Source: Vicinamibacteria bacterium
GTDB lineage: Bacteria > Acidobacteriota > Vicinamibacteria > Marinacidobacterales > Marinacidobacteraceae
DNA length: 64,000 nucleotides
Direction: 5' to 3'
Assembly: GCA_963668695.2 (NCBI GenBank)
Contig: CAXXLQ010000004.1
Span: 2,720,001 to 2,784,000 of the forward strand
Under the pieces are notes generated by a model, which was not told the origin of the DNA, did not search any database, and saw nothing but the letters and a program-made list of their open reading frames with translations. Positions 5,413 through 55,524 of the stretch are shown here, piece after piece. The translations under genes were made by a program, and so were the position numbers. Position 1 is the stretch's first letter; every line of letters begins with the position of its first letter.

Positions 5413-5566
5413 GGGTTGTTCTCGCCGGGGAACGCGCATCCAGTTCGGCGACGCGATCGGTCAGGGGGCACCACCGGGAGAACTGGCGCCGGCCTCCAGG
5501 CCGTCTTCGCCCGCCGGCGGCGGGCGAGAACGCGTACTGCCCCGCGCCCTTAGCTGAACGGCAGTC

Positions 5567-6586
5567 TCAGCAGTCGTTCGCCCTTCGTTCGAGGTCGGCG
5601 CAGGCGTCCATGAGTTCGTCGAAGGACTCCGCGTCCTCGGGGAGCATGCCGGCCTGCACCATGGCACGGTAGTCCTCGGCCAGCGTCTCCCGGCCGGCAC
5701 CGGAGGGCACGAGTTGCAGGCCGCCCGACACGGCGTCCTCGTATGAAATCCAATGATCCGCGACATCCTTCTCTCGGAAGAAGATGGCCTTGTGGCGCGC
5801 GACGCTCGAAGCGAGCGTGCGGTCGGCCAGCGCCTTCTCCGCAAAGCCGGCGCGGTCCAGTCGAACGAGGTCATGCCAGTGCCGGGTCAGGCGGTCTCCC
5901 CGGCCGCGCGCTCGCTTGCAGAAGACGTGCATCGCGGTCGCCTTCTCCCAGAACGTTCGCTCGGCCAGCATCACCGAGGGCCGGGCCTCGGGAAACGAGA
6001 TCTCCGGCAGAAACGGTGCCGCCTCACACCGCACCGGTCGGACTTCGCAGGGCTCGCCGGTCGAGCGTGCTCCGAATTCCACGACGACTGTGGGTTTGAC
6101 GAATTCGTAGCCCCGAAAAAGAGGTTCGTATTTCACCAGAATCCGGTCTCCCGAGGTGTCCGCGCGGGCGTCAAATCCGGCGCGCGCGAGACCGTCCGCG
6201 ACCGCGGCCCGCCCCTCGTTCCGGACCCAGGAGGCGAGCCTCTTCCGGACCTCTCTCGTCCACCGCTGCTCCTGACTTCGCGTAGGCGGCAACGCCTCCG
6301 GACCCGCGTCTCCGACCAGGTCCGGAGCGATGGCTCGAATGTCGTAGGTCACGTCCACGTCCTCCGAGAAGCGCTGGATCGCCCCCCAGGCCTTCGATAG
6401 CGAAGTTCCGCCTTTGAAGACGAGATCCCCCGCGAAGGGCGCGCCAAACAGGGCTTCGATGGTGGCTACCACCCAGATGTCTTTTTCCAGCAAGTACTCC
6501 GCGCCGCTCGGTCCGGACCGAAGGGCGGTTCTGAGCGCCTCGGTCCGCTCGTTCGACGAAAGGGACGCAAACCGGACGTCAGCCAT
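5567..6586 (-). CDS. Type IV TA toxin, AbiEii/AbiGii-family nucleotidyltransferase
   Basis: LEKDIWV, FKGGTSLSK, RFSEDVD, RTFWEKAT, RHWHDL; start reassigned to ATG 6586, overlapping the antitoxin stop. Confidence 0.9.
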   Translation of the reverse strand: MADVRFASLSSNERTEALRTALRSGPSGAEYLLEKDIWVVATIEALFGAPFAGDLVFKGGTSLSKAWGAIQRFSEDVDVTYDIRAIAPDLVGDAGPEALPPTRSQEQRWTREVRKRLASWVRNEGRAAVADGLARAGFDARADTSGDRILVKYEPLFRGYEFVKPTVVVEFGARSTGEPCEVRPVRCEAAPFLPEISFPEARPSVMLAERTFWEKATAMHVFCKRARGRGDRLTRHWHDLVRLDRAGFAEKALADRTLASSVARHKAIFFREKDVADHWISYEDAVSGGLQLVPSGAGRETLAEDYRAMVQAGMLPEDAESFDELMDACADLERRANDC

Positions 6587-7175
6587 CGGCCATTTCCGTG
6601 GTGATCGCTGCCGCCATCCAGGTCGGCAGGATCGGGCGCGCCCCGAGGAGTTCGGCGCGGTCCTCGGCCGCGAGTTGAGGCAGGACCCGCCCGAGGTTCT
6701 CCCGGACCTCCTCCCGGCCAAGCCAGTGCAGAGCCCGAATGACCTTGCCGGCCGGGCGATGCGGCAGGGTGAGTTGCCAGCGCGGCGCGTGAACCAGTCG
6801 GACTCTTCGGGCGCCAAAGTACAGCTTACGGCCCGGCCCGGAGGTGAGGCAGGTCGGGACTACCTGGTTCTGGGTCGTGAGCCCCAGAACATTGGCCGAG
6901 GCTCCGCCGTGCGGGACGATGGCCTCCCCCCAGAGTCTTGCGAGGGCGTCGAGCGATTTCGCAAGATCGGGGGAAGCGATTCCGAACCGAGTCCGGATCG
7001 TGCGCATATAGATCCCAGGGAAGATTCGGTCGAGCCGCTCCTCCCGGGCCAGCCGTGAAAGTGCCTGGTCGACTGCGGCTCGGCTTCCGAGGTCCAGAAG
7101 CGCCTTCGCGCAGATCGGCGTCGCTTCGGGCAGGGCTTCCGCCCGTTCCATGATGCGTTTCGCGATGCTCGGCAT
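6579..7175 (-). CDS. AbiEi-like antitoxin (DUF6088 family)
   Basis: LGSRAAVDQALSRL..GIY, ANVLGLTTQ, LTSG motifs; coupled to AbiEii. Confidence 0.85.
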   Translation of the reverse strand: MPSIAKRIMERAEALPEATPICAKALLDLGSRAAVDQALSRLAREERLDRIFPGIYMRTIRTRFGIASPDLAKSLDALARLWGEAIVPHGGASANVLGLTTQNQVVPTCLTSGPGRKLYFGARRVRLVHAPRWQLTLPHRPAGKVIRALHWLGREEVRENLGRVLPQLAAEDRAELLGARPILPTWMAAAITTEMADG

Positions 7176-7219
7176 TTCGTCAGTCGGTTTGTCAGAAATA
7201 ATAGTAGATATCTGACGAA
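7176..7219. promoter_or_regulatory. AT-rich AbiE promoter with inverted repeat (probable AbiEi operator)
   Basis: TTGTCAGAAAT-aatagtag-ATATCTGACGA imperfect inverted repeat immediately upstream of the antitoxin ATG. Confidence 0.55.
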
Positions 7220-7347
7220 CACCCCCCGCTGTGACGCCGACGACCGGCGACTTCGGCCCGCTGCGTCCTTTTGCTATCCTGCGACGCGCTTTCCCGCTGG
7301 CGCCGGCGCTGCGCGGCCGCCTCCAACCCCCGAAGAAAGGAACTGCC

Positions 7348-8745
7348 GTGAGTGCGACCGCCGCCGTAACCGATTTCATCCTCGACACGACGATCGAGGA
7401 CTTTTCCGACGCGCTGCTCGACGAAGGCCGCCGGTGCGTGACTGACGGAGTGGGCGTGATCCTCGCCGGCTCCACCGATACCTGTTCGCGCATCGTCCAG
7501 GAACAGATTGCCGCCCAGGGCGGGCGTCCCGAGGCGGCCATCCTCGGCCCCGCGGGACTCCGCGCGCCGGCATCCCTCGCCGCCCGGGCGAACGGGACCG
7601 CCGGCCACGCGCTGGACTTCGACGACACGCAGCTCTCGAACGCCCCCGACCGGATCTTCGGGCTGCTGACGCACCCCACGGTGGCGCCGCTCGCCGCGGG
7701 ACTCGCGATGGCGGAGCGGGAGGGCGCGAGCGGCGCCGGCCTGCTGGAGGCGTTCCTGGTCGGTTTCGAGGTGGAATGCAAGATCTCGGAAGCCATTGAT
7801 CCCCGCCACTACATGGAGGGTTTCCACTCCACCGCGACCGTTGGGGCTCTGGGAGCCACGGCGACCGCGGCCAAGCTGGCCGGTCTGGACCGTGAGGAGC
7901 TGGCCATGGCGCTGGGAATCGCGGCGAGCCTCGCTTCGGGCATCCGGCTCGGCTTCGGCACGATGACGAAGCCGCTCCACGCTGGGCGGGCGGCCGAAAA
8001 CGGAATCCTGGCGGTGGAGCTGGCGGCGCGCGGTTACACCTCGGGGCGCGACGCACTGGAAGCGACGTGGGGTTTCTTCCGGGTTTTCGGAGGCGGCTTC
8101 GATCCGGACCGGCTGAACCTCGGCAATCCCTACACCCTGCTCGATCCGGGCGTTTCGGTGAAGATGTTTCCCTGCGGCAGCCTCAGCCACCCGAGTCTCG
8201 CCGCGCTTCTGGAACTGATTCAGACGCACGACCTCGCGCCGGGAGATGTGGAGCGGATCACCTTCCGGGCGGGGCGCAACATCCTGAATCCGCTCCGGTA
8301 TCTCGATCCGCAAAACGCCCTTGAGGCCAAGTTCTCCATCCCGTTTCTGCTCTCGAGCGCCGTGCTCCGGCGGCGGGTGGGGATTCCCGAGTTCGCGGAC
8401 GATTTCGTTCGTTCTCCCGAGGTGGTGGCCATGATGCGGCGGGTCGCCGTGCAGTTCGATCCCGAGATCGACGCGCGCGGCTACGACCGCATGCGGAGCG
8501 CCATGGACGTAATCCTGAAGGACGGTTCGCAGCTCACAGTCGAGGCCGACGTCTATCCGGGCGGTCCCGAGCGGCCCCTGACGCGCGAGGAACTGCGGCA
8601 GAAGTTCCGCGACTGCGCGGTTGACGCCCTTCCCCCCGACCGGATCGAGGAAGCGCTCGCGCAGGTCGAAGCGGTGGACGAGGCGCCCCGGCTCGCGGAC
8701 CTGGCGGCCGCCCTCTCCGGGGCGGCGGCGGGGGTCGCGGCATGA
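7348..8745 (+). CDS. MmgE/PrpD family protein
   Basis: NGTAGHALDFDDT, GFHST, FGTMTKPLHAG, KMFPCG, AKFSIP; GTG start after an AAAGGA RBS. Confidence 0.9.
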   Translation: MSATAAVTDFILDTTIEDFSDALLDEGRRCVTDGVGVILAGSTDTCSRIVQEQIAAQGGRPEAAILGPAGLRAPASLAARANGTAGHALDFDDTQLSNAPDRIFGLLTHPTVAPLAAGLAMAEREGASGAGLLEAFLVGFEVECKISEAIDPRHYMEGFHSTATVGALGATATAAKLAGLDREELAMALGIAASLASGIRLGFGTMTKPLHAGRAAENGILAVELAARGYTSGRDALEATWGFFRVFGGGFDPDRLNLGNPYTLLDPGVSVKMFPCGSLSHPSLAALLELIQTHDLAPGDVERITFRAGRNILNPLRYLDPQNALEAKFSIPFLLSSAVLRRRVGIPEFADDFVRSPEVVAMMRRVAVQFDPEIDARGYDRMRSAMDVILKDGSQLTVEADVYPGGPERPLTREELRQKFRDCAVDALPPDRIEEALAQVEAVDEAPRLADLAAALSGAAAGVAA

Positions 8746-10688: not shown

Positions 10689-10707
10689 GCGGCCGGCCGG
10701 CGGCGGC

Positions 10708-12162: not shown

Positions 12163-12165
12163 GGA

Positions 12166-12405
12166 TCAGTTCTCCCGGTGGTCCTCGTGGCCGTCCTCGT
12201 GGCCGTCCCAGAGCCGGAGCGCCGCGTACGACACGAGGCAGCTCACGCCGAAGGTGCAGAGGAGGGAAACCACCGCCCAGGAAGGGAGCCCGAGAACGAT
12301 GGAGGGCCTCCCGTCCCCGAACCACCAGGGAATCGAAAACGCGTAGAGCGCGCCGATCGCCGCGAAGAGCCACGGGTGGCGGAGCGGATCGCGCCGGAGC
12401 TTCAT
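12166..12405 (-). CDS. Small 2-TM partner protein of the SSS transporter
   Basis: Two hydrophobic helices with PWW...LGLPSW, directly upstream of the symporter. Confidence 0.7.
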   Translation of the reverse strand: MKLRRDPLRHPWLFAAIGALYAFSIPWWFGDGRPSIVLGLPSWAVVSLLCTFGVSCLVSYAALRLWDGHEDGHEDHREN

Positions 12406-12521
12406 GGATGGCGACGATATGGCAGTTTGGGCTTCGGGAAAACGGCGACGGGAAAACGCCGTGACCGCAGAGGCGCCACCCGCCAGATCGGCGGGCTACG
12501 CCTCCGGGTTGCGAGTCGGTG

Positions 12522-12944
12522 TCAGCGCGCTCCCAAGCGCTCGAGCAAGGCCGCCGGAGTGAGGATCGGGACGGCGGGAAGACCGGTCACCTCCAAGAGG
12601 TCCAGATCACCGGTTGCCAACGCGTCCGCTTCGCCCAGCAGTGCCGTCTCGGTGAGTTTGTCGTCATCCGGGTCGCGGCATCCCAGTCTGGCGCCCGTGA
12701 TCCAGACCCATTCCGACACCGCGCGGAGGCGGGCCCGATAGACGGCGCTGGTCCTCCGGCTGGCGTAAGGATCGAACTTGGCCTTCATGACACGTGTCTG
12801 ACGTTCATCGAACGTCTGATCGGAGAACAACAAGAGGCCGCCCGCGCGTCCCACTGCCTCCAGGGCCTCACGGGGCGCGTCCGCCGGCCAGAAGGCAGCG
12901 CTGATCAGTACATTCGTGTCCAGGACAACCCGCTCAGCTCTCAT
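12522..12944 (-). CDS. PIN-domain toxin
   Basis: RVVLDTNVLISA, CRDPDDDK, TGDLDLL. Confidence 0.88.
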   Translation of the reverse strand: MRAERVVLDTNVLISAAFWPADAPREALEAVGRAGGLLLFSDQTFDERQTRVMKAKFDPYASRRTSAVYRARLRAVSEWVWITGARLGCRDPDDDKLTETALLGEADALATGDLDLLEVTGLPAVPILTPAALLERLGAR

Positions 12945-13185: not shown

Positions 13186-13199
13186 GGGAGCCATTATGG

Positions 13200-13386
13200 C
13201 TAACAGCCTGTGGTGGAACTCGCGTGAGCGCCGAGAGCGGTGAGGCGCCCGGCTGACAAGGCGCGTGAGGGAGGAATACCGGGTGTATTTCGACCGAAAC
13301 GCAACGCAGAGCGCCGCAAAGCGGCGCGGTTCAGGCGGGATGGATCGCCGCTCGAACGCCGCGTGGGTTTCACCACAGGCTGTTAA
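13200..13386 (-). mobile_element. MITE family A, basic 183-bp unit
   Basis: CTAA-CAGCCTGTGGTG...CACCACAGGCTG-TTAA terminal inverted repeats; matches other copies in the window. Confidence 0.85.
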
Positions 13387-18633: not shown

Positions 18634-18838
18634 TCAGCAGCCGGTGGTGAAACCCATGCGGCGTTCGGCCGGCGATCCATCCCGGCTGAACCGCGTCGCT
18701 TCGCGCCGCTCATCGTTGCGTTTCGGTCGAAATACACCCGGGCCAGTTCTCCCGGTGGGGGCTCCTCCCTCACGCGCCTTGTCAGCCGGGCGCCTCGCCG
18801 GCCTCGGCGCTCACCCGGGTTCCACGACAGGCTGCTAG
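18634..18838 (+). mobile_element. MITE family A with one 20-nt micro-insert (201-bp unit)
   Basis: TCAG-CAGCCGGTGG...CCACGACAGGCTG-CTAG; 183+18 bp. Confidence 0.85.
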
Positions 18839-20913: not shown

Positions 20914-21065
20914 CGCCGTAGGCGGAGGCGTCGGACCAGCGTCAAGCGCGCGCGACCGCGGGAGTACGTCCAGCCGACCAACGCGACGACGCGCGACGGC
21001 GGAACGCCGGCCAGTTCTCCCGGCGGGGGCCTCCGGCCTACACACGGAATTTCTGACAGTCCTGG

Positions 21066-21604: not shown

Positions 21605-21679
21605 TGGTGGGCGATGCAGGATTTGAACCTGCGACTTCTACCGTGTGAAGGTAGCACTCTTCCGCTGAGTTAATCGCCC
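21605..21679 (-). tRNA. tRNA-Val(CAC)
   Basis: GGGCGATTAACTCAGCGG...CTACC-TTCACAC-GGTAG...GGTTCAAATCC..ATCGCCCACCA. Confidence 0.95.
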
Positions 21680-21948
21680 GTTGCCGGGTGCTGCCGGGGC
21701 GATGCGGACTGACGTCGCGCCCCGGCGGCCGAGGGCTGGGACGCTAGCAATCCGCCCGGTTTCCGTCAACCCGTCACGAGAGGACGACCGTGCGCGCTCG
21801 CCCGCCGGCGGCCAGCGGCCGGCCTTCCAGGCCGTCCCCGCGCTTCTTCTCGATCAACCGTACGCGGTTTCGCGGCCCTCCGGGCCGCGGTGCCGGTCTG
21901 AAGCCCCCACCGGGAGGACTGGCCGGCGTTCCCTCGCCCTACCGCTTC

Positions 21949-25791: not shown

Positions 25792-27177
25792 GTGAACCGT
25801 GAATCCGCGATCGCCGAGACGATCCTTGAAACGGTAGGAGAAACACCGCTCGTCGGCCTCCGGCGCATTGGCCGGGGGCTCCCCGGGCGGGTCGCCGTGA
25901 AGATGGAGTCCTTCAATCCCGGCGGATCCGTCAAGGACCGCATCGCCATCACCATCGTTGAGGACGCGGAGCGCAGCGGTGCGCTCAAACCCGGAGGAAC
26001 GATCATCGAGGGCACCTCGGGAAACACCGGCATGGGTCTCGCGCTGGTCGCGGCGGTGAAGGGCTACCGGTCGATCTTCGTGATGCCGGACAAGATGAGC
26101 GACGAGAAGATCCGGGCGCTCCGGGCGCTCGGCGCCGAGGTGGTGGTGACGCCGACGGCGGTGGAGCCCGAAGATCCGCGCAGCTACTACAGCGTGGCGA
26201 AGCGCCTCGTGGAAGAAACCGAAGGAGCTCTCTACGCGAACCAGTACCACAATCCCGTGAACCCGGAGACCCACTACCGCACGACCGGGCCCGAACTCTG
26301 GCGGCAGGTAGGGCCCGAGATCCACACCCTGGTCTGCGGTCTCGGGACCGGGGGCACCGTCAGCGGGATCGGCCGCTACCTGAAGGAGCAGAACCCGGAG
26401 ATCCGGGTCGTGGGCGCCGACCCCGTGGGTTCGCTCTACGAGGAATACTTTCGCACCGGGAAGGTGGGTGAGGCCCGGAGCTACAAGGTGGAGGGAATCG
26501 GCGAGGACTTCATCCCGTCCACCATCGACTTCGCGGTCATCGACGAGGTAATCCAGGTCACCGACCGGGACTCCTTCCTGATGACCCGCCGGCTCGCGCG
26601 GGAGGAGGGGCTCTTCGTGGGTGGCTCCGCGGGGACGGCGGTAGTGGCGGCGCTCGAGGCGGCGTCGCGAGTTCCTCCCGGGGCGCTCGTGGTGGTCCTC
26701 GCTCCCGATTCCGGCGGGCGGTACCTCTCCAAGATCTTCAGCGACGACTGGATGCGCCAGAACGGCTTCCTGGAACCCGCGCGCGAAGACGCGAGGGTCG
26801 GCGACGTGCTCGCCGCCAAGGGCGGCCAGGAGATCCTGAGCGTTCCCCAGACGGCGGGAGTCCGCGAAGCCGTGACGCTGATGCGGAAGCACGACGTGTC
26901 GCAGCTTCCGGTCCGGGACGAGGACGGTTTCGTCGGGGTCGTTACCGAGGCTTCGCTCCTCGAGGGCCTCTTCTTCGGCGGCGCCAGCCGGGGCGAGGAT
27001 CAGGTCCGCGCGTTTATGAAGACGGACAAGATCGCGTCGGTGGACGTGGACAGTCCCCTCGACGAGTTGGCGCAGATCTTCGCCGGGGGCAGGATCACGG
27101 TGGTGACCGAAGAAGGCCAAGCCGTCGGCTTGCTCACCCCGATCGATCTGCTCGACTACCTCTCGCGGGAAAGCTAA
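25792..27177 (+). CDS. cbs: Cystathionine beta-synthase with C-terminal CBS domains
   Basis: NPGGSVKDR, TSGNTG, GTGGT, VEGIGEDF, YLSKIF.DDW, CBS pair. Confidence 0.9.
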   Translation: MNRESAIAETILETVGETPLVGLRRIGRGLPGRVAVKMESFNPGGSVKDRIAITIVEDAERSGALKPGGTIIEGTSGNTGMGLALVAAVKGYRSIFVMPDKMSDEKIRALRALGAEVVVTPTAVEPEDPRSYYSVAKRLVEETEGALYANQYHNPVNPETHYRTTGPELWRQVGPEIHTLVCGLGTGGTVSGIGRYLKEQNPEIRVVGADPVGSLYEEYFRTGKVGEARSYKVEGIGEDFIPSTIDFAVIDEVIQVTDRDSFLMTRRLAREEGLFVGGSAGTAVVAALEAASRVPPGALVVVLAPDSGGRYLSKIFSDDWMRQNGFLEPAREDARVGDVLAAKGGQEILSVPQTAGVREAVTLMRKHDVSQLPVRDEDGFVGVVTEASLLEGLFFGGASRGEDQVRAFMKTDKIASVDVDSPLDELAQIFAGGRITVVTEEGQAVGLLTPIDLLDYLSRES

Positions 27178-27803
27178 CAGCCGGTGGTGGAACCCGGGTG
27201 AGCGCCGAGGCTGGCCAGTTCTCCCGGTGGGGGCGAGGCCCAGTTCTCCCGGTGGGGGTCCGGGTGACAAGGCGGGTGAGGGAGGAGCCCCCACCGGGAG
27301 AACTGGCCCGGGTGTATTCCGACCGAAACGCAACGATGAGCGGCGCGCAGCGACGCGGGTAACAGCCGGTGGTGGAACCCGCGTGAGCGCCGAGGCCGGC
27401 CAGTTCTCCCGGTGGGGGCGAGGCCCAGTTCTCCCGGTGGGGGTCCGGCTGACAAGGCGGGTGAGGGAGGAGCCCCCACCGGGAGAACTGGCCCGAGTGT
27501 ATTTCGACCGAAACGCAACGCAGAGCGGCGCGCAGCGACGCGGGTAACAGCCGGTGGTGGAACCCACGTGAGCGCCGAGGTTGGCCAGTTCTCCCGGTGG
27601 GGGCGAGGCCCAGTTCTCCCGGTGGGGGTCCGGCTGACAAGGCGCGTGAGGGAGGAGCCCCCACCGGGAGAACTGGCCCGAGTGTATTCCGACCGAAACG
27701 CAACGCAGAGCGCCGCAACACGGCGCGGTTCAGCCGGGATGCATCGCCGCTCGAGCCCCCACCGGGAGAACTGGGCCGCCTGGGTTCCACGACAGGCTGT
27801 TAA
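27174..27803 (-). mobile_element. MITE family A head-to-tail trimer (185-bp period) carrying 10 micro-inserts
   Basis: TAACAGCCGGTGGTGGAACCC at 27175, 27360 and 27545; single distal end CCACGACAGGCTG-TTAA. Confidence 0.88.
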
Positions 27804-27812
27804 GAACGGCGA

Positions 27813-33534: not shown

Positions 33535-34873
33535 CCCGCCGTCCTCGATCGAGGCGGTGCTCCGTCGCCGCGGGATGCCCGCGGCTTTTTGTCGCGGTTT
33601 CCTGCGCTCCGTGGCGATTGCCTCCCGGGGGCCTTGTCACCTTCCGGAAGAGTCCATCGTTCCCGTTGCGGACGTTCCCGTATTGCCGGCGCTCGGCGAG
33701 GCAGCTCCCGCGGAAGAGCGGGCTCGCACCGTCTCCATCACCCTCAACGGCGGACTCGGGACCACCATGGGAATGCGGGCTCCGAAGGCGCTCCTCTATG
33801 CCACCAAGGGCATGACCTTCCTGGACATCACGCTGAGACAGGCCGAGGCGGTGGGGGTGCGCCCGGTCCTCATGAACAGTTTTGCGACCGATGCCGCGGT
33901 TCGCGAGAACCTGGGGGGCAAGGACGTTCGCAGCTTCTTGCAGCACGAGGCGCCCAAACTTCGCCAGAGCGACTTCGCTCCGGTCCGCGTTCCCGGGAAA
34001 CCGGATCTCGAGTGGTGTCCTCCGGGGCACGGGGATCTCTATACGGCCCTCGGGACCAGCGGAGTCCTGGGGGATCTGCTCGCGGATGGGTTCCGCTACG
34101 CCTTCCTCTCGAATGTGGACAACGTCGGGGGTTGCCCCGACCCGTCGCTCCTTGCCTATTTCATCCGGTCGGGCGCACCCTTCCTCATGGAAGTCGTCCG
34201 GCGCACGGCCGAGGATTGGAAGGGAGGCCACCTGGCCCGCCGGCGAACCGACGGACGGCTGGTCCTGCGGGAAACGGCGCAGTGCGCGCCCGAGGACCAG
34301 GCCGCCTTCCGCGACCACGAGTGTTATCGCTACTTCAACGCCAACAACCTGTGGTTGCGCCTGGAGGCGCTTCGCGACGCGCTGGATCGGGAAGAGGGAT
34401 TCCTCCCGCTCCCCACGATCGTGAACCCGAAGACCGCTGATCCGCGAGATCCGGGTTCCGATCCGGTATTCCACCTCGAACAGGCTGCCGGGGCGGCGCT
34501 GGAGGTCTTCGAGGGGGCACGGGCGGTCGAGGTTCCCAGGCGGCGGTTCGCGCCGGTAAAGACGATCGAGAACCTGCTGGTCCTGCGCTCGGACATCTAT
34601 GCGATCGACGAGAACGGCCTGGTGGAACCGGCGCGCGAGCCGCCACCGGTGGTGGCGCTCGACGGTGAGCGGTACCGCTTCATCAGCGATCTCGAAGCGC
34701 GCTTTCCCTACGGGCCGCCTTCGCTCGTTGCCTGCGACCGGTTTCAGGTCCGGGGTGACGTGCGGTTCGGGAAACAGGTCGCGTGCGAGGGAGAAGTCAC
34801 CGTGCTGGGCCGTTCGGACCGGCCTTCAACCATCCCGGACGGGGCCCGCCTCCGGGGCGTGGTGCGGGTCTAG
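33524..34873 (+). CDS. UTP--glucose-1-phosphate uridylyltransferase (eukaryote-like UDPGP family)
   Basis: LNGGLGTTMG..PK, LMNSF, WCPPGHGD, SNVDN, KGGHL, LRETAQ, FNANNLW, RFAPVK. Confidence 0.92.
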   Translation: MPASPPSSIEAVLRRRGMPAAFCRGFLRSVAIASRGPCHLPEESIVPVADVPVLPALGEAAPAEERARTVSITLNGGLGTTMGMRAPKALLYATKGMTFLDITLRQAEAVGVRPVLMNSFATDAAVRENLGGKDVRSFLQHEAPKLRQSDFAPVRVPGKPDLEWCPPGHGDLYTALGTSGVLGDLLADGFRYAFLSNVDNVGGCPDPSLLAYFIRSGAPFLMEVVRRTAEDWKGGHLARRRTDGRLVLRETAQCAPEDQAAFRDHECYRYFNANNLWLRLEALRDALDREEGFLPLPTIVNPKTADPRDPGSDPVFHLEQAAGAALEVFEGARAVEVPRRRFAPVKTIENLLVLRSDIYAIDENGLVEPAREPPPVVALDGERYRFISDLEARFPYGPPSLVACDRFQVRGDVRFGKQVACEGEVTVLGRSDRPSTIPDGARLRGVVRV

Positions 34874-35056
34874 CAGCCTGTGGCAAAACCCACACGGCGT
34901 TCGACCGGCGATCCATCCCGGCTGAACCGCGTCGCTTCGCGCCGCTCATCGTTGCGTTTCGGTCGAAATACACCCGGTATTCCTCCCTCACGCGCCTTGT
35001 CAGCCGCGCGCCTCGCCGGTCTCGGCGCTCACGTGGGTTTCACCACAGGCTGCTAG
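34870..35056 (+). mobile_element. MITE family A, basic 183-bp unit, CTAG duplicated
   Basis: CTAG-CAGCCTGTGG...CCACAGGCTG-CTAG; left flank is the UGPase stop codon. Confidence 0.88.
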
Positions 35057-35207
35057 GAGTCGTGGTGCCGACCGCCGGCCAGTCCTCCCGGTGGCGCCCG
35101 GCACAGCGGCCCGTAGCGCCGCCGAGATGCGTACGGTTGCGCTCCTTCACGGGATGACCGCCTTCCTCCCAGACAGCCCCGGCTAGAATCCGCCCTTCCC
35201 CACTCCC

Positions 35208-42195: not shown

Positions 42196-42269
42196 TACGC
42201 CTGGCAGGACTCGAACCTGCGACCTACGGATTAGGAATCCGTCGCTCTATCCTCCTGAGCTACAGGCGC
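42196..42269 (-). tRNA. tRNA-Arg(CCT), CCA not encoded
   Basis: GCGCCTGTAGCTCAGGAGGATAGAGC, ACGGA-TTCCTAA-TCCGT, GGTTCGAGTCC. Confidence 0.95.
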
Positions 42270-42360: not shown

Positions 42361-42637
42361 CTGGCAGCCGGTGGATAAAGTGGCGTGAGCGCCGAGAGCG
42401 GCAGTTCTCCCGGTGGCGGCGAGGCCCAGTTCTCCCGGTGGGGGTCCGGCTGACAAGGCGCGCGAGGGAGGAGCCCCCACCGGGAGAACTGGCCCGGGTG
42501 TATTTCGACCGAAGCGCAACGATGAACGACGCGAAGCGGAGTGTTTCAGCCGGGGCCCCCACCGGGAGAACTGGGGATCGCCGCTCGAGCCCCCACCGGG
42601 AGAACTGGGCCGCGTGACTTTGTCCACAGGCTGCTAG
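42361..42637 (-). mobile_element. MITE family A with five micro-inserts (273-bp unit)
   Basis: CAGCCGGTGGATAAAG...CTTTGTCCACAGGCTG-CTAG; 183+90 bp; right flank is the apt stop. Confidence 0.85.
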
Positions 42638-46790: not shown

Positions 46791-47423
46791 GTGTTTCGGA
46801 TCCCCCCGCGGGCGCTCGCCGTGTTCGTGGCGCGGGGTGTGCTGGGTCTCGTGTTCTTCATGGCGGGCTGGTGGAAGGTGTTCGAGATGGGAGCCTTGGA
46901 ACACGCACGATCTCTCTTCGTGGGGCCGTACGCGGAGAGCTGGCTGCCGGCGTGGGCGCTTTGGGCGCTAGCAGCCTGTGGCGAAACCCAGGGCGGCGTT
47001 CGGCCGGCGATCCATCCCGGCTGACCGCGTCGCTTCGCGCCGCTCATCGTTGCGTTTCGGTCGAAATACACCCGGTATTCCTCCCTCACGCGCCTTGTCA
47101 GCCGGGCGCCTCCCCGGCCTCGGCGCTCACCCGGGTTCCACTACAGGCTGCTGAGGACAGCGGTGCCGTTCGTGGAGCTCATCGCCGGGGGGTTGATGCT
47201 GGCCGGGTGGATGCGGTGGCCGGCAGCGCTCGGACTCGGGGGAGTGCTGATCCTGGTGACCTTCGGGCATCTGCTGGCGGAGCCGCTCTTTGCCTTCAAC
47301 GCGCATGTGATTCCGCGCACACTCTTGCTGGTCTTGGTGCTCGCGCTCTTCGAGGAGGACCGCTGGAGCGTGGATGGATCGCTCGCGCGGCGCCGGGCGG
47401 CGAAACAAGCGCAGAATCGCTGA
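46791..47423 (+). pseudogene. DoxX family membrane protein interrupted by an in-frame 183-bp MITE carrying one TGA
   Basis: RGVLGLVFFMAGWWK...WAL|insert|TAVPFVELIAG...TFGHLL.EP; both halves in the same frame. Confidence 0.8.
46968..47154 (+). mobile_element. MITE family A, basic 183-bp unit inside doxX
   Basis: CTAG-CAGCCTGTGG...CCACTACAGGCTG-CTGA. Confidence 0.88.
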
Positions 47424-48319: not shown

Positions 48320-48525
48320 TTAACAGCCTGTGGCAAAACCCACGCGGCGTTCGGTCGGCGATGCATCCCGCCCGAACCACTCCGCTTCGCTCCGTTCTTC
48401 GTTGCGTTTCGGTCGAAATACACCAGGTATTCCTCCCTCACGCGCCTCGTCGGACGGGCGCCTCGCCCCCACCGGGAGAACTGGCCGACCTCGGCGCTCA
48501 CGTGAGTTTCACCACAGGCTGTTAG
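48320..48525 (+). mobile_element. MITE family A with one micro-insert
   Basis: TTAA-CAGCCTGTGG...CCACAGGCTG-TTAG; 183+19 bp. Confidence 0.85.
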
Positions 48526-48546
48526 GTGGGTCACGGGAGACCCTGT

Positions 48547-48788
48547 TCAACAGCCTGTGGCAAAACCCACGCGGCCCAGTTCTCCCGGTGGGGGCTCGCC
48601 CGGCGATGCATCCCGGCTGAACCTCTCCGCTTCGCTCCGTTCTGTGTTGCGTTTCGGTCGAAATACACTCGGGCCAGTTCTCCCGGTGGGGGCTCCTCCC
48701 TCACGCGCCTTGTCAGCCGGGCGCCTCGCCCCCACCGGGAGAACTGGCCGGGCTCGGCGCTCACGTGGGTTTCACCACAGGCTGTTAA
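48547..48788 (+). mobile_element. MITE family A with three micro-inserts
   Basis: TCAA-CAGCCTGTGG...CCACAGGCTG-TTAA; 183+55 bp. Confidence 0.85.
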
Positions 48789-48921
48789 CGTCCGACGTGA
48801 TCCCCCGCCCACGACCGTAGCGCGGCGGCCGGGATGCTGGTAGCATGACCGTCGCAAGCAGCAGGTGACCGGAGGTTTCGTCGCGAAGCGACGGGGCCGC
48901 GTGTTGAAGGGGAAGAGACTC

Positions 48922-50085: not shown

Positions 50086-50182
50086 CGGAGGGCGCCGGCG
50101 CTCCGTTGTCCTTCCGGCGGCCCTGCGGACACGTTCTGCGGGCCGTCGTCGCTTGCGCGCCATGGCGAGCGTGGGGCTGGGG

Positions 50183-50326
50183 GAGCCGCTCTTCGCCTTC
50201 GACGTGCACGTAGTGCCGCGGACGGTATTGCTGGTCGTGGTAATGGCGCTCTTCGAGGAGGACCGCTGGAGCGTGGATGGATGGCTCTCGCGCCGCCGGG
50301 CCGCGAGGGCAGGCCAGGATCGCTAA
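50183..50326 (+). pseudogene. Diverged duplicate of the doxX 3' end
   Basis: EPLFAFDVHVVPRTVLL..LFEEDRWSVDG..R* is colinear with 47280-47423 and has the same length. Confidence 0.8.
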
Positions 50327-50411
50327 CCGTCGGCCCCCCGATATTCTTCGGACTCCGTGGGGCGGTTGGGCCCCACCTCGTTCCCCCAGCCCGGCTTCGA
50401 CCATCTTGACC

Positions 50412-53039
50412 ATGACCACCAAATCCGATCTCCGGACCCCGCTCCCGGGCGCTGTCCGCACCCTTCGCGCTCTTGGCCTCTCCGGCCTTGTCGCCCTCGG
50501 CAGCTTCTCTACCCAGGCCGCAGCTCAAATCCCTGCCCCTGAGGAGTTCTTCGGACACCGCATGGGTGCGGACCGCAAGCTCGCCCACTGGGACCGGCTC
50601 GTCGAGTACTACGAGCTCATCGGCGGGGCGAGCGACCGGGTCCAGGTCGTCAACATGGGTCCCTCGACGCTCGGGCGGCCCTTCCTCTCGATCTTCATCT
50701 CCTCCCCGGAGAATCTGGCCCGGCTCGACGACTACCAGCGGATGAACGCAGTCCTCCAGGACCCGCGCGGGCATTCGCAGGGGGAAATTGACCAGGCCAT
50801 CGCCGAGGGCAAGGTCGTCTTCGTCCAGTCCTACGCGCTCCACTCGACGGAGGTGGCGGCCGCCCAGTCGGCGGCGGAGATCGTCTGGTCCTTTGCCAAC
50901 CGCGACGACCCCGGGATCCACGAGATCCTCGACAACACGATCTCCATCCTGATCCCCTCCTTCAACCCCGACGGGGTGGACCTGGTGAACGAGTGGTACG
51001 ACCGCTGGGTGGGCACCGAATACGAAGGGGCGGGTCCGCCCGGGCTGTACCACCACTACATCGGGCACGACAACAACCGCGACGCCTTCATGCAGAACAC
51101 GGTGGAGTCGCGATACGGGGCCCAGATCATGTTCCGCGAGTGGATTCCGCAGGCGTATATCGACCACCACCAAATGGGGGCTTACACCGCCCGCATCTAT
51201 CTGCCGCCGTACGCCGAGCCCATCCGTCCCGCTGGCGACCCGCTCGTCTGGCGGGAGATGTCCTGGTACGGCGCGCAGATGGCATACCGCATGGAGGAAG
51301 AGGGCCTCGAGGGGGCGGTGAACGCCGCGATCTATTCCGGCTGGGGGCATTTCGGGTTCCACTGGCTCACTCCCTTCCACAACATCGCCGGGATGCTCAC
51401 CGAGTCCGCCAGCGCTCGTCTGGCGACGCCGCTGTTCGTGCATCCGGACCAGCTCCGGGGCTCCCGAGCGCTCCCGGAATACGAAGCGCAGACCACCTTC
51501 CCGAACCCCTGGCCCGGCGGCTGGTGGCGGGTGCGCGACATCGTGGACCGGCAGATCTCCGCCACCTTCTCCCCGCTCGAGATGGCCGCCCGGAACCGCG
51601 AGACCGTCCTGCGGAACGCCTGGAACAAGGCCAGCCGCCAGATCCGGCGCGGCGCCGAGGACGAGGTCAAGGCGTACCTCGTGCCGGCGCGCCAGCACGA
51701 CCCGCTGACCATGGGCAAGATGGTGGACAAGCTGCTCCTCCAGGGGATCACCATGGAGCGCTCGTCCACCGGCTTCATCCATGAGGGCCGGGTGTACGGG
51801 CCGGGGACCTGGGTGGTGTCGCTCGCGCAGCCGAAGCGCGGCGTCGTCCGCTGGCTCCTGGGTCGCACCCTCTACCCGGACAACACCTACACGCGCACCG
51901 CCGGCGGCGATCCGATCCGTCCCTACGACATGTCCGGCGACGTGCTGGCCGAGTTCATGGGAGTGCGCGTGGACGAGGCGCGCACGCCGGTGGAGGCGGA
52001 GCTCGAAGTGGTCGCCGAAAGGAAGCTGCCCCCGGGGACGGTCGCGTCCACCGCGCCGGGCGGCTACCTCATGGACGGCGCGCTGAACGACGCGTTCAAG
52101 GCGGTGAACCTGCTGTTCGATGCGGGTGCGTCCCTCCGCCGCGTCACCGAGGACACTGGCATGGCGAAGCGCGGGGACTTCATCGTCGCCCGGGAGACCG
52201 CCGGGGAGACGCTCGGCGAGGTGGCGGAAGCCACCGGAGTCAGCTTCACCGCCCTCGCTACCGACGCTTCCGGCGCCTCGCACCCGCTGTCGCAGCAGCG
52301 CATCGGGATGTACCAGCGCTACTACGGCGGCAACATGGACGAGGGTTGGACCCGCTGGCTCCTCGAGGACTTCGGTTTCGATTACACCAGTCTCTTCGAC
52401 GAGGAGATCCTCGCCGGCGAGCTGCACGAGCGCTGGGATGTGATCGTCCTTCCCGCCGACTCGAAGGCCATGATGCTCGGGCCGTCCGGGGATTCCCCGG
52501 GTGGGTTCGGCCCCGACCCCAACCAGACGCCGCCGGACTACCGGAGCGGTTTCGGAGCGGAGGGCGCCGAGGCCCTCGAGGCTTTCGTTGAAAACGGCGG
52601 CACCCTCGTGACCTTCGCCCAGGCGGGACAGCTGGTGCTCGACGAGTTCGATGTTCCGGTGCGCGACGCCGTGGCCGGCAGGTGGGGGAACGAGTTCTGG
52701 GCGCCGGGCTCGACGCTCAAGGTCAAGGTGGACACCTCGAGTCCGTTTGCGTACGGGATGCCGGAGGATGCGCTCGCCGCCTATCTCGCCGGCGGGCAGG
52801 TCTACGAGACGGTCCCCGGCGCGCGCAGCGCCGACGTGCGGCGTGTGCTGACCTACGTGGATCGGGACATCCTGCAAAGCGGCTGGCTGCTCGGCGAGGA
52901 CGCCATCGCCGGCAAGGCCGCCATGGTGTCGGTTGACCACGGGGAGGGTCAGGTCGTGATGATCGGCTTCCGCGCGCAGCACCGCGCCCAGACCCACGGC
53001 ACCTACAAGCTGTTCTTCAACGCGCTGGTGGGGGAGTAG
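50412..53039 (+). CDS. M14-family zinc carboxypeptidase-like protein, secreted
   Basis: LHSTE, FNPDG, YIGHDNNRD, DHHQMG, MDEGWTRW. Confidence 0.88.
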   Translation: MTTKSDLRTPLPGAVRTLRALGLSGLVALGSFSTQAAAQIPAPEEFFGHRMGADRKLAHWDRLVEYYELIGGASDRVQVVNMGPSTLGRPFLSIFISSPENLARLDDYQRMNAVLQDPRGHSQGEIDQAIAEGKVVFVQSYALHSTEVAAAQSAAEIVWSFANRDDPGIHEILDNTISILIPSFNPDGVDLVNEWYDRWVGTEYEGAGPPGLYHHYIGHDNNRDAFMQNTVESRYGAQIMFREWIPQAYIDHHQMGAYTARIYLPPYAEPIRPAGDPLVWREMSWYGAQMAYRMEEEGLEGAVNAAIYSGWGHFGFHWLTPFHNIAGMLTESASARLATPLFVHPDQLRGSRALPEYEAQTTFPNPWPGGWWRVRDIVDRQISATFSPLEMAARNRETVLRNAWNKASRQIRRGAEDEVKAYLVPARQHDPLTMGKMVDKLLLQGITMERSSTGFIHEGRVYGPGTWVVSLAQPKRGVVRWLLGRTLYPDNTYTRTAGGDPIRPYDMSGDVLAEFMGVRVDEARTPVEAELEVVAERKLPPGTVASTAPGGYLMDGALNDAFKAVNLLFDAGASLRRVTEDTGMAKRGDFIVARETAGETLGEVAEATGVSFTALATDASGASHPLSQQRIGMYQRYYGGNMDEGWTRWLLEDFGFDYTSLFDEEILAGELHERWDVIVLPADSKAMMLGPSGDSPGGFGPDPNQTPPDYRSGFGAEGAEALEAFVENGGTLVTFAQAGQLVLDEFDVPVRDAVAGRWGNEFWAPGSTLKVKVDTSSPFAYGMPEDALAAYLAGGQVYETVPGARSADVRRVLTYVDRDILQSGWLLGEDAIAGKAAMVSVDHGEGQVVMIGFRAQHRAQTHGTYKLFFNALVGE

Positions 53040-53159
53040 GGCGCCTCACCGGAAACGCGGCCCGCCGGCCGGCGAAAAAGCGGTCCGACGGCCGGCGAAA
53101 AAGCGGGCGGCCGATTCTTCGGAAGGTCCCTTGTCCTAGCGGAAGGTCCCTTGTCGTAG

Positions 53160-54161
53160 CTAGGCCGGGACGGGCTCGGCGCCGACCGTGGTCCGATCCT
53201 GGTTCTTGAGGATCCACTCACCGGTCAGGGCGAGCCCCGCTTCGAGGGACGTCTTGGGCGTCCAGCCGAGGCCGCGAATCCGGCCCGTGTCCATGCTGTA
53301 ACGGCGGTCATGTCCGGGCCGGTCGGCCACGTGGGCGATACGGCCCTTCCGGCCGCTCATCCGCTCCGCGAGAGTCAGGATGTGACCCGCCATCTCCAGA
53401 TTCGTTCTGCGATCCTCGCTGCCGACGTTGTAGATGGCGCCCGGGGTTCCGGCGCGCAGGAGCAGATCCAGCGCGGCGCAGTGGTCGGCGACGAAGAGCC
53501 AGTCGCGGATCTGCCGTCCGTCCCCGTACACCGGAAGCGCCTCGCCGGCGAGCGCCTTGGCGAAGAAGGTCGGAGTCATCTTCTCGTGGTGTTGGCGCGG
53601 GCCGTAGGTGTTGGCGCCGCGACTGATGATCACCGGCAGTCCGTGAGTGGCACGGTAGGCAAGGGCCAACAGATCGGCGCCGGCCTTGCTGGCGGCATAC
53701 GGGTTCTTGGGCGCCAGGGGCGCTTCTTCGTCGACGTCTCCCTCCGGGATCTCCCCGTAGACCTCGTCCGTCGAGACCTGGAGGAGCAGCCTTCCCCGTG
53801 GGGATCGGCGGAAAGCTTCCAACAGGACCGCGGTCCCCAGGGTGTCGGTGCGGGCGAAGGCCTCGCCATCGAGGATGGCGCGGTCCACGTGGGTCTCGGC
53901 AGCGAAATTGATCACGTAGTCCGCCCGGGCGGCCAGCGGCTCGCTGACTGCCTGGTCGCAGATGTCGCCGTGGATGAACTCGTGGCGGGGATTCGCGAGC
54001 GCGGCGCCGAGGTTGTCCAGGGACCCCGCGTAGGTCAACTTGTCCAACGTGACGACCCGGCAGTCCGGGTAGCGGGCGAGCAGGAGGTCCACGAAGTGGC
54101 TTCCGATGAAGCCGGCTCCGCCGGGCACCAGAAACGTCGGGTCGGCAGGCACTTTGGACAT
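53160..54161 (-). CDS. rfbB: dTDP-glucose 4,6-dehydratase
   Basis: GGAGFIGS, DKLTYAG, FAAETHVDR, STDEVYG, PYAASKA, DRPGHDRRY. Confidence 0.95.
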   Translation of the reverse strand: MSKVPADPTFLVPGGAGFIGSHFVDLLLARYPDCRVVTLDKLTYAGSLDNLGAALANPRHEFIHGDICDQAVSEPLAARADYVINFAAETHVDRAILDGEAFARTDTLGTAVLLEAFRRSPRGRLLLQVSTDEVYGEIPEGDVDEEAPLAPKNPYAASKAGADLLALAYRATHGLPVIISRGANTYGPRQHHEKMTPTFFAKALAGEALPVYGDGRQIRDWLFVADHCAALDLLLRAGTPGAIYNVGSEDRRTNLEMAGHILTLAERMSGRKGRIAHVADRPGHDRRYSMDTGRIRGLGWTPKTSLEAGLALTGEWILKNQDRTTVGAEPVPA

Positions 54162-54195
54162 CAAGGGCAATTTATGGGTTCTCGACCATTTGCGG

Positions 54196-55206
54196 TCAGG
54201 CGACCTGGAGAACGATCTTGCCGAAGTGGGCGCCGCGTTCCATGCGCTCGAGCGCCGCGGGAAGTTCGGCGAGCGGATAGTGGCTATCGAGGACGGGCCG
54301 GATGTCCGTTCCTTCGAGGAAGCGCACCAGATCCCGGAGCGCCCGGCGGCAGTCGGTCATGACGCCTGCGATCCGGATCCGGCGCATGACCGCGGGTGCG
54401 AACTGCACTTGGGCCTCGAGTCCGGTGAGGGCGCCGAGCAGCGCCACCGTTCCTCCGGCGGCGGTGGCTCGGAGCGACTGGCCAAGCGTCCCGGCGCCGC
54501 CGTTTTCGACGACCAGGTCCGCACCCTCACCGTTCGTGGCCTCCCGCACGGCCCGGTCCCAATCCGCCACTTCCGTGCGGTGGATTCCTACGTCAGCACC
54601 CAGGGATCGGGCTCGTTCCAGCTTTTCGTGAGAAGACGAAGTGATGATCACCCGTGCTCCCAGGGCCTTGGCGATCTGGAGAGCGAACACGGAAACCCCG
54701 CCGGTCCCCAGGGTGAGGACCGTCTGGCCGGCCTGAATCGGGCCCTCGGTGACGAGGGCGCTCCACGCGGTAAGGGCTGCGATAGGAAGCGAAGCGGCCT
54801 CTTCGTGGCTCCACCCGGAAGGTGCGTGACAAAGCGCCGCCTCCGGGAGGACGACTTGTTCCTGGCCCATCCCCGGGCCCGGTCCGCCCAGCGTGGCCCG
54901 CGAGTACTCGCGCCGGAAGCGGCCGTCTTCCCAGCCCACCACCGGATGGGTGATGACCCGATCTCCGGGCGAGAAGGCAGCGACTCCCTCGGAGACTTCG
55001 AGGACAACGCCCGCTCCGTCGCTGACCGGAACCTGGGGCAGCGGCAGCCGCGGGTTGTAGAGCCCTTTCAGGATCAAGAGGTCCCGGTAGTTCAGCGAAG
55101 CGGCGTGAAGTCCGACCAGAACCTCGCCCGGACCCGGCTCGTCGGGGCGGCACTCCTCGATTCGGAGGTTTTCGGCGCCAAACCGATGGAATACCCAGCG
55201 CTTCAC
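54196..55206 (-). CDS. MDR-family NAD(P)-dependent alcohol dehydrogenase/quinone reductase
   Basis: SLNYRD, SDGAG, TAWSAL, GTGGVS, HFGKIV; GTG start. Confidence 0.9.
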   Translation of the reverse strand: MKRWVFHRFGAENLRIEECRPDEPGPGEVLVGLHAASLNYRDLLILKGLYNPRLPLPQVPVSDGAGVVLEVSEGVAAFSPGDRVITHPVVGWEDGRFRREYSRATLGGPGPGMGQEQVVLPEAALCHAPSGWSHEEAASLPIAALTAWSALVTEGPIQAGQTVLTLGTGGVSVFALQIAKALGARVIITSSSHEKLERARSLGADVGIHRTEVADWDRAVREATNGEGADLVVENGGAGTLGQSLRATAAGGTVALLGALTGLEAQVQFAPAVMRRIRIAGVMTDCRRALRDLVRFLEGTDIRPVLDSHYPLAELPAALERMERGAHFGKIVLQVA

Positions 55207-55310
55207 GGGGGGCAGTGTACCGAGCGGCCCCGGCGATCGGCGCTCTTCTCCTGGCGGTGACTCCGCTCGATCCGCGCCTCCCGATGGTTCGCCCCGGCCA
55301 ATCGACACTG

Positions 55311-55524
55311 TCAGCAGCCGGTGGTGAAACCCACGCGGCGTTCGAGCGGCGATGCATCCTTGCTGAACCGCTTCGCTCGTCGTTGCGCTTCGGTCGAAAT
55401 ACACCCGGGCCAGTTCTCCCGGTGGGGGCTCCTCCCTCGCGCGCCTTGTCAGCCGGGCGCCTCGCCCCCACCGGGAGAACTGGCCGCTCTCGGCGCTCAC
55501 GCGGATTTCGCCACGGGCTGCTAG
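55311..55524 (+). mobile_element. MITE family A with two micro-inserts and a 10-bp deletion (210-bp unit)
   Basis: TCAG-CAGCCGGTGG...CCACGGGCTG-CTAG between divergent genes. Confidence 0.85.

Follow-up and report, generated by a model that had tools for sequence, protein, structure and literature searches.

How does a sequence of only 20 nt come to lie, again and again, inside repeats of different kinds? The question is raised by a 64,000-nt stretch of the genome of a Vicinamibacteria bacterium (GenBank assembly GCA_963668695.2, here G000; contig CAXXLQ010000004.1, here C4, positions 2720001-2784000), to which we refer as the window. A reading made from the letters of the window, without database searches (the sequence-only reading), had counted about 26 copies of the 20-mer GCCCCCACCGGGAGAACTGG, 22 of them in transposable elements of the miniature inverted-repeat type (MITEs) and four in short palindromes resembling repetitive extragenic palindromes (REPs), and had offered three explanations: a minimal non-autonomous mobile unit, a stereotyped excision footprint, or a templated product of an enzyme that acts on hairpin-forming DNA. 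Both counts were reproduced. At up to three mismatches the window holds 26 matches (17 exact, six with one mismatch, two with two and one with three), compared with 0.04 expected from dinucleotide-preserving shuffles, none of 100 of which reached 26, and the four copies in REP-like palindromes begin at 5467, 21011, 21903 and 35079. From the comparisons described below we consider it probable that the 20-mer, hereafter the unit, is a very small non-autonomous mobile DNA module that depends on a trans-acting enzyme conserved in the family.

The window is part of a 4.10-Mb assembly of 67.5% G+C in four contigs, which is 92% complete and carries a contamination figure of 9.3%. A genome-wide count and a classification of flanks, as the sequence-only reading had proposed, gave 1,646 unit matches at the same threshold (962 exact, 535 with one mismatch, 104 with two and 45 with three), taking up about 0.8% of the genome, and 125 flank classes. 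The matches merge into 1,495 blocks, comprising 1,351 single, 140 double, two triple, one quadruple and one quintuple, and the period of the multiple-unit blocks is 18 rather than 20. The 18-nt core of the unit is CCCCACCGGGAGAACTGG, usually with GC directly before it. Contig C1 holds 52 of the 1,646 units and doubles some of these counts. Six flank classes, all of them positions within one MITE family, account for 1,109 of the 1,495 blocks.

This main host is a MITE of about 183 bp, a base length given by the sequence-only reading that agrees with the 183-nt period of empty tandem MITEs in a related genome (G010). Its ends, CAGCC(T/G)GTGGTGAAACCC...GGGTTCCACCACAGGCTG, abut TA (as CTAG or TTAA), which suggests a MITE of the IS630 type. 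G000 contains about 575 matches to the MITE core and 363 full-length copies, in which the unit occupies six fixed positions: E (156 copies), A (167), B (130, often double), C (117), F (39) and D (2). Five positions had been claimed earlier; six are used, D only rarely, and the rest of that claim, both orientations and zero to five units per element, stood. Units in the left arm of the MITE lie on one strand and those in the right arm on the opposite strand. The other hosts include two short palindromes, REP1 (GCCGGTCT-GA-AGACCGGC) and REP3 (GCCGACC-GGA-GGTCGGC); REP1 is the repeat that flanks genes for REP-associated tyrosine transposases (RAYTs) in relatives, with 19 copies at a locus of G001 and 17 at a locus of G010. 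Genes for DDE_3 transposases gave four matches in G000 and are most numerous in three other MITE-rich genomes. At G000:C4:666797-668230 a DDE_3 (IS630-like) frame (C4:667625-668065, within 465 open amino acid codons) lies directly between two CTAG-abutting MITE copies; this frame could be the MITE's autonomous partner, or insertions could merely have landed on both sides of it.

Comparison of empty and filled copies indicates what happens at each position. A filled site is an empty site in which one to three bases have been replaced by the unit, with a net gain of 18 or 19 nt and no target duplication, and this held across the 363 MITEs and the REPs, in agreement with the replacement of 2 nt (net +18, or +19 at one site) that had been read from the window. 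The empty forms are as follows, with the replaced bases between hyphens.

Site E, MITE: GA-AC-GCCG.
Site B, MITE: CCGG-GC-GCCTC.
Site F, MITE: CCGC-GC-CGCT.
Site D, MITE: GGG-AT-GGATC; rare, with 3 filled and 355 empty at the stringency of the flank-class comparison.
Site A, MITE: GGA-AT(A)-CCGG.
Site C, MITE: CTC-N-CCGG; net +19.
REP1 site: GAAG-A-CCGG; net +19.

Altogether, at least 17 flank classes have matching empty sites with site-specific filler bases. Because these fillers are specific to each site and equal to the MITE or REP consensus, the empty state is ancestral; loss of a unit could bring the filler bases back only by copying from another empty repeat. The alignments demonstrate that unfilled sites keep the ancestral bases, with no class of footprints among them. 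Ninety of the 363 MITEs have no unit at all, 42 occupancy patterns occur, and at ten of ten site pairs all four combinations of empty and filled are present.

One copy lies in a gene. The sequence-only reading had seen no unit in ordinary coding DNA, and this is so for the window; genome-wide, one exact copy sits in frame inside an AcrB-family transporter gene of G000 (ACR_tran, E 6.6e-241). Although 199 of all 1,646 units fall in crude coding-like frames, only three of 205 unit placements in such frames on C4 have coding signal on both flanks, and only this one is a true unit; the other two are chance matches with three mismatches. G000 and its 96%-identical sister G001 read GAGCCCG-[20-mer]-CGGGATG, whereas the remaining 14 orthologues, from a set of 16 genomes in the genus, are 18 nt shorter, with GAGCCCG-CG-CGGGATG in G008 and close variants of it in the rest. 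Since two of the 16 genomes are filled and 14 have CG or a close variant, the unit in this gene is, by this comparison, a derived insertion. It replaces the CG at the centre of the palindrome CCCGCGCGGG, turning one alanine codon into seven codons in frame, and its flanks are shared with no other unit among the flank classes of G000; it is an insertion into unique DNA without flanking homology. Together with the empty and filled repeats, this allele shows that the unit enters DNA in either orientation, without flanking homology or target duplication, and at the cost of one to three bases.

Are the targets defined by structure? By the alignments they are overwhelmingly short G+C-rich palindromic repeats, namely the IS630-like MITE and RAYT-type REPs, and rarely a palindrome in a gene. 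The empty MITE folds into one long hairpin (-47.6 kcal/mol, z -2.7), and a MITE with five units folds much better (-96.6, z -10.2) because its left-arm units pair with its right-arm units. REP1 forms a clean hairpin (z -3.7). In the folded MITE, sites B, C and D fall at junctions of helix and internal loop, and the target in the gene is the centre of CCCG-CG-CGGG. A rule by which hairpin loops are the targets was rejected: REP1 and REP3 are entered inside a stem arm, so there is no single structural target rule. The common sequence theme is likewise weak, with (G)CCGG(C)-like words adjacent and no shared target word.

The same data bear on the second of the earlier explanations, by which the unit would be the scar left on excision of a larger insertion sequence that targets REPs or MITEs. 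Elements of the IS110 family in these genomes do enter a REP palindrome and are present in all five high-copy genomes, as that explanation would have it, but they enter at GCCGACCGGAGGTC^CGGCGTTCC and not at unit sites, their ends are unlike those of the unit, and the genome G019 has 36 unit cores and no IS110. Moreover, at no locus do the two halves of the unit surround a longer element; orphan halves numbered 26 (left) and seven (right) among about 1,390, each of them an internal deletion or a chance match. It would also be hard to see scars in an in-frame insertion in a gene, or in 18-nt-period tandems with as many as five units. An origin as an excision footprint is therefore largely refuted, and we regard it as very improbable.

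The unit and its main host part company in related genomes. Of 24 other genomes in the family, 20, from five genera, contain the exact 18-nt core at 1 to about 630 copies each; all 16 genomes of two sister families lack it, and a reversed-pattern control gave zero everywhere. Copy numbers among close relatives run from 1 to about 1,290. In G010, a near-complete genome of the same genus, there are 88 MITE cores and six unit cores, and 30 of 30 MITEs examined contain nothing unit-like at up to four mismatches. Conversely, G018, of another genus, has 220 unit cores and three MITE cores, and its units sit in other repeats. In one of these the empty form GCCGG-AC-TGGAGTCCGGC stands against the filled form GCCGG-[unit]-TGGAGTCCGGC, again a replacement of 2 nt. 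Because the MITEs examined in G010 are empty and the units of G018 lie in other repeats, the unit is not part of the MITE. Two further features of G018 concern its variants: a repeat family GCCCC-[unit]-CCGGGAGAAC(C/T)GG-(T/C)GGAG looks like a unit inside another unit, just ahead of the internal CCGG (this nested-looking form, the unit followed by CCGGGAGAACYGG, is found in G018 and not at all in G000), and the MITE homologues of G018 bear an older unit variant, GCCCCTACCGGGAGAACCGG, at site E.

This distribution also disposes of an origin in assembly, adapters or polishing, in favour of which nothing was found. Counting G000, 21 of 41 related genomes contain the unit; single-contig chromosomes and short-read metagenome-assembled genomes (MAGs) of differing origin are among them. 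The unit also lies at conserved orthologous positions. A scan of one genome per species found at least 99 stretches; among the matches listed, nearly all came from MAGs titled Candidatus Marinacidobacterium, Vicinamibacteria or Acidobacteria, and the few single matches elsewhere were at chance level for that much DNA. The window stretch is also present in sequencing runs of eight studies. With so many origins among assemblies and runs, the unit is not an adapter or assembly artefact, and that explanation, being refuted, retains next to no probability. As assembled contigs, four of the public runs (X4, X8, X10 and X15) break at MITEs, so neither 18-nt polymorphism nor transcription can be read there. 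Words of the MITE are present in an RNA library, summed over hundreds of copies, to which carry-over of DNA may contribute.

Does the unit still turn over? Contig C1 (144,504 bp) is a 99.2-99.9%-identical reverse copy of C4:304184-421223, aligned over 116 kb in 12 blocks. The assembler has probably retained a second strain haplotype here, which fits the 9.3% contamination figure. Two of the nine indels of at least 6 nt over these 116 kb involve the unit (site B filled in one haplotype and empty, with GC, in the other; one versus two tandem units), and a third unit difference, at an alignment break, is a deletion between two direct units. Deletions of this kind, and others between the CCGGG of the unit and a CCGGG of the MITE, demonstrate at the sequence level that units recombine with one another. 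Four-way alignments with G001, G004 and G008 were made for 38 unit clusters at C4:300-525 kb. One partner or more was found for 25 of the clusters, and the alignments contained 18 site-level empty/filled differences at orthologous MITEs. In one MITE, four sites that carry five units in G000 are all empty in G001, with canonical fillers, while rare variants of the backbone are shared; in another, B is empty and A filled in G000 and the opposite holds in G004.

A MITE phylogeny, which the sequence-only reading had put forward as a way of recognizing independent gains, gave a divided answer. The backbone tree is weakly supported (36 of 347 nodes at 0.9 or above), and the minimum numbers of occupancy changes on it are 97 for E, 64 for A, 83 for B, 78 for C and 26 for F, compared with shuffle means of 117, 120, 107, 102 and 37.5. 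Among the 40 closest pairs of MITEs, 20 differ in occupancy. Inheritance is real, but changes are numerous too.

Several of these results weigh against independent mobility, and they are best considered together. The occupancy changes observed lie below all 200 shuffles at all five sites, a tree signal which means that much of the copy number is inheritance and not separate insertion. At three of the orthologous empty-to-filled differences the same complex allele appears, a double unit at site B, and in two of these three there are base changes beside site A; short-tract gene conversion between MITEs fits this recurrence no less well than de novo insertion on repeated occasions. For no insertion other than that in the transporter gene are homologous donors wholly lacking. 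In conservation the unit does not clearly exceed the conserved columns of the MITE (1.5% mismatch per position, compared with a median of 1.8% for the MITE backbone). Nor is there any orientation bias by replichore that would indicate insertion into single strands: strand counts over all units are 385/389 and 323/337 (p 0.79), and we take p 0.02 in one subset, which is uncorrected, as no bias. The searches described below identified no enzyme for the unit, and we know of no transposition chemistry that would replace 1-3 nt without duplication for a 20-nt element.

An explanation that builds on these points denies the unit any mobility of its own: it would be a module of MITEs and REPs, like the accessory motifs of bacterial interspersed mosaic elements (BIMEs), that arose on a few occasions through rare illegitimate events and thereafter passed between copies solely by amplification of MITEs and REPs, ectopic gene conversion and, during replication, template switching between repeats that form hairpins. 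We think this unlikely. In its favour, in addition to the tree signal at all five sites, the identical recurrence of complex alleles and the base changes adjoining site A, the MITE regions diverge more than their flanks between the C1 and C4 haplotypes, deletions between units and between CCGGG words prove that such recombination happens, and the pairing of left-arm with right-arm units in a filled MITE would favour template switching across the hairpin. It leaves unaccounted for, however, the insertion in the transporter gene without homologous flanks, the recurrence of the same unit ends at no fewer than 17 unrelated types of site, and likewise in other repeat families from a different genus, the change of four sites in one MITE while the rare variants between them stayed, and the 30 of 30 empty MITEs in a genome, G010, that has six unit cores. 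The proposal of a minimal non-autonomous mobile unit, by comparison, gains from the gene insertion, from the empty and filled site types, from the orthologue and haplotype differences and from the empty MITEs of G010.

Could the unit instead be kept by its hosts, as a protein binding site or a structure in transcripts, so that selection explains its identity across genera? The exact 18-mer is conserved in five genera, transcripts of the MITE would contain 20-bp stems formed by about 240 inverted unit pairs (spacings 47, 54 and 50), and all six frames of the unit are, by inspection, free of stop codons. Against this, copy numbers run from 1 to about 1,290 among close relatives, with six in a near-complete genome of the same genus, and copies arise as whole-unit insertions and not by point mutation. 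By itself the unit is unstructured, folding no better than shuffles (z 0.45), being neither palindromic nor bounded by inverted termini, and it has neither a match in Rfam above threshold nor a replichore bias; a filled MITE gave only sub-threshold matches to miRNA-like hairpins. Selection would, moreover, leave the entry of the sequence unexplained. A host-selected function is, in our judgement, quite improbable as the explanation of the unit.

Which enzyme might move the unit? The sequence-only reading had found no candidate in the window, and the coordinates from our profile searches agree. Its suggestion of RAYTs or reverse transcriptases fared worse: profile searches of the 92%-complete G000 found no PF01797 (Y1/RAYT), no PF00078 (reverse transcriptase) and no PF00239 (resolvase), and a RAYT protein of G001 used as a query found nothing in G000. 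Among 28 genomes of the family, reverse transcriptases occur in four, none of them G000, G004, G008 or G018, and RAYT-like genes occur in 15, which include none of G000, G004, G018 and G019; both are thus missing from G000 and other high-copy genomes. Where RAYTs are present they are flanked by REP1 and not by the unit (19 REP1 and one unit in G001; 17 REP1 and no unit in G010). The RAYT-like genes of G001 (234 and 279 aa; locus L176, G001:C17:2345000-2359000) and of G010 stand amid arrays of REP1, with 17-19 palindromes spaced about 111 or 80-85 nt apart. The TnpB zinc-ribbon gave no match above the cut-off in the 28 genomes, and DDE_3 occurs in seven and is missing from G018. The IS110 family occurs in 11, including all five high-copy genomes, the only one of five surveyed families to do so, and is not in G019. 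IS110 shares the REP habitat, so its co-occurrence with the unit is confounded.

Some details of the IS110 elements stand apart from this survey. One element at about G000:C4:482107-483885 encodes a 415-aa DEDD transposase (PF01548, PF02371) and lies in a REP3 palindrome. Seven copies from three genomes were aligned; in these the left target flank is matched by a segment at the left end, CAACC(G/A)GAGG, and in one copy (G004a) segment and flank covary, in the manner of a bridge-RNA guide. The non-coding region at the left end, invariant among these elements, has CCGCCGGGAGCAAC (L134:1285-1300), a sequence similar to the unit core CCACCGGGAGAAC; the likeness may be due to chance, with a rough estimate of about 1 in 100 for such a region, and both the resemblance and the presence of IS110 in all high-copy genomes are post hoc and confounded.

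Two origins for the unit were tried and rejected. Rotated, the unit reads GT-TCTCC-CGGTGGG-G-CCA, like a tRNA 3' end or primer-binding site, and none of 58 Aragorn calls of tRNA or tmRNA in G000 ends with it. The nearest tRNA-like 3' end, three differences from the rotated unit, belongs to a doubtful 98-nt 'tRNA-Val(gac)' at G000:C4:2525348-2525445, which begins ACCGGCGC and ends ...GGTCGCCCGGCGGGGCCA and is probably a false call on a degenerate repeat. A circular 18-mer inserted by a 2-nt crossover, of the serine or IS110 type, was rejected in its simple form: the left dinucleotide of the unit, mostly GC, is neither that of the target nor the GG of its right end.

We favor a scheme in which a trans-acting, sequence-specific DNA enzyme, conserved in the family and other than a canonical reverse transcriptase, RAYT or serine recombinase, would copy or paste the unit and so found new sites. 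Once a site type had been founded, most copies would multiply passively as the MITE or REP is amplified; recombination between units, and perhaps conversion of short tracts between MITEs, would then shuffle them. The 18-nt tandems may arise by re-insertion where the replaced dinucleotide equals the first two bases of the unit, as GC does at site B, since insertion there regenerates its own target (CCGG followed by GC), or else by slippage.

A bolder variant holds that an undescribed DNA-writing machinery stamps a fixed sequence of 18-20 nt into hairpin-prone DNA while removing one to three bases. It could be a recombinase or nuclease-ligase with a dedicated template, such as a bridge-RNA-type IS110 recombinase acting on a minimal donor, or a templated polymerase other than a canonical reverse transcriptase, and the 18-nt period of a 20-nt unit would then be a 2-nt overlap of register, as in repeat-addition enzymes. 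We hold this to be rather unlikely. The third of the earlier explanations, a templated product of an enzyme on hairpin DNA, may also hold: the targets mostly form hairpins, but the insertion points are not consistently in loops.

Within the window itself, the copies and their hosts range from empty MITEs to an array with ten units, as listed here by coordinate; the bounds of three MITEs without units are approximate, taken from a match to the MITE core.

5467..5486, plus: diverged unit, 2 mismatches, in a short REP-like context.
13203..13386, minus: MITE without units; bounds approximate, from core match 13283-13305.
18640..18838, plus: MITE with one unit, 18743-18762 minus, at site A; B, C and E empty.
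21011..21030, minus: unit, 1 mismatch, in the REP context GGAACGCCGG-[unit]-CTCCGGCC.
21903..21922, plus: unit variant GGAGGACTGG in a REP1 palindrome, GCCGGTCTGAA-[unit]-CCGGCGTTCC.
27176..27805, minus: tandem array of period 185, three partial head-to-tail MITEs and one complete right end; ten units, C at 27215, 27400 and 27585, B at 27240, 27425 and 27610 (variant ACCCCC...), A at 27287, 27472 and 27657, E at 27755.
34871..35057, plus: MITE without units; bounds approximate, from core match 34951-34973.
35079..35098, minus: diverged unit, 3 mismatches, in a REP-like context just past a MITE end.
42362..42636, minus: MITE with five units, 42401 C, 42426 B, 42473 A, 42555 D (rare) and 42589 E.
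46969..47152, plus: MITE without unit, the empty reference form, which folds into one long hairpin.
48380..48530, plus: 5'-truncated MITE; A empty (CCAGGTATTCC), C filled by 48465-48484 plus.
48549..48790, plus: MITE with three units, 48576 E minus, 48674 A minus and 48728 C plus.
55318..55530, plus: MITE with two units, 55410 A minus and 55464 C plus; E empty (GGC-GT-TCG).
58402..58585, plus: MITE without units; bounds approximate, from core match 58482-58504.

Each of the three partial MITEs of the array has the same three units; similar tandems in G010, of period 183, have none. The five-unit MITE at 42362-42636 is missing as a whole at the orthologous place in G001 and G008. In Rfam searches of the window, gathering thresholds were passed by two tRNAs only, at 42196-42269 (70.4 bits) and 21608-21679 (68.6 bits). 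The five-unit MITE lies about 93 nt from the former, and a unit-bearing REP about 220 nt from the latter.

If the unit is indeed a mobile module, it would be among the smallest mobile DNA units known, and the Acidobacteriota would be the second lineage to have such a unit, after the Nostocaceae. The record here is cleaner than in the Nostocaceae: alleles with and without the unit are exact, one insertion in a gene is polarised, turnover is active between 99.5%-identical haplotypes, and copy numbers in several closed genomes run from 1 to about 1,300. Such a record would make the movement of about 20 nt directly testable. There are consequences for annotation as well: MITEs grow by steps of 18 with the unit, a gene can gain six codons from it with the frame kept, and it breaks up short-read assemblies at these repeats.

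A literature search found no description of this 20-nt element, the supplements of papers aside. The closest precedent is the small dispersed repeats (SDR1-8) of the Nostocaceae. In the account of Elhai et al. from 2008, SDRs are reportedly 21-27 nt long and lie within minitransposons, HIP1 and arrays of heptamers, with SDR1 and SDR4 nested in their own copies and tandem forms, and SDR4-6 are said to share a predicted secondary structure with compensatory changes. As far as citing papers describe them, SDRs are embedded in other repeats, including minitransposons (PMC5861425, PMC4390886, PMC2884548), and SDR5 lies between nucleotides 3 and 4 of HIP1 (PMC4390886). By these descriptions SDRs and the unit are alike in being high-copy repeats of about 20 nt, confined to one coherent lineage, found at precise positions inside other repeats and encoding no protein, and the evidence of recent mobility is matched for the unit by the haplotypes, the orthologues and the transporter gene. 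They differ in that the unit comes from Acidobacteriota, is 18-20 nt long, just below the reported 21-27 nt, has no secondary structure of its own, replaces one to three bases, targets RAYT-type REPs and an IS630-like MITE, and has a polarised insertion in a gene. Insertion sequences that target REPs, such as IS621 of the IS110 family and IS1397 of the IS3 family, likewise use palindromic repeats as landing sites, but these are autonomous elements of 1-2 kb with a transposase gene, whereas the unit has 20 nt and encodes nothing.

Mosaic repeats built of modules include NIME/dRS3 of Neisseria and BOX of pneumococci. The BIMEs of enterobacteria, as outlined in PMC2884548, resemble the filled MITE in that a host repeat carries a variable number of short accessory motifs at fixed positions. 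The motifs of all these mosaics are not known in unique DNA or in unrelated repeats, unlike the unit, which occupies at least 17 unrelated sites and a gene. REPs and REPINs with their RAYTs are, by what PMC3116915 and PMC3733652 say of them, also short, extragenic, highly repeated and lineage-specific, often forming inverted pairs able to fold into a hairpin; the unit, however, is no palindrome, has no GTAG/CGTC tag by inspection and no cognate RAYT that it flanks, and is a guest inside REPs. MITEs as a class have 50-500 bp with terminal inverted repeats and a target duplication, whereas the unit has 20 nt and its target loses 1-3 nt. HUH enzymes of the IS200/IS605 or RAYT type, Y1 transposases that insert 3' of a set tetra- or pentanucleotide with a bias to the lagging strand, fit poorly with the lack of PF01797 in G000, G004, G018 and G019, of a target word and of replichore bias, and retro-elements or templated cDNA with the lack of a reverse transcriptase in G000, G004, G008 and G018. 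DNA uptake sequences (DUS) and uptake signal sequences (USS), finally, are motifs of 10-12 nt that are spread across coding and non-coding DNA and arise by point mutation; the unit, in contrast, is 20 nt long, lies almost never in genes and is gained as a whole by insertion.

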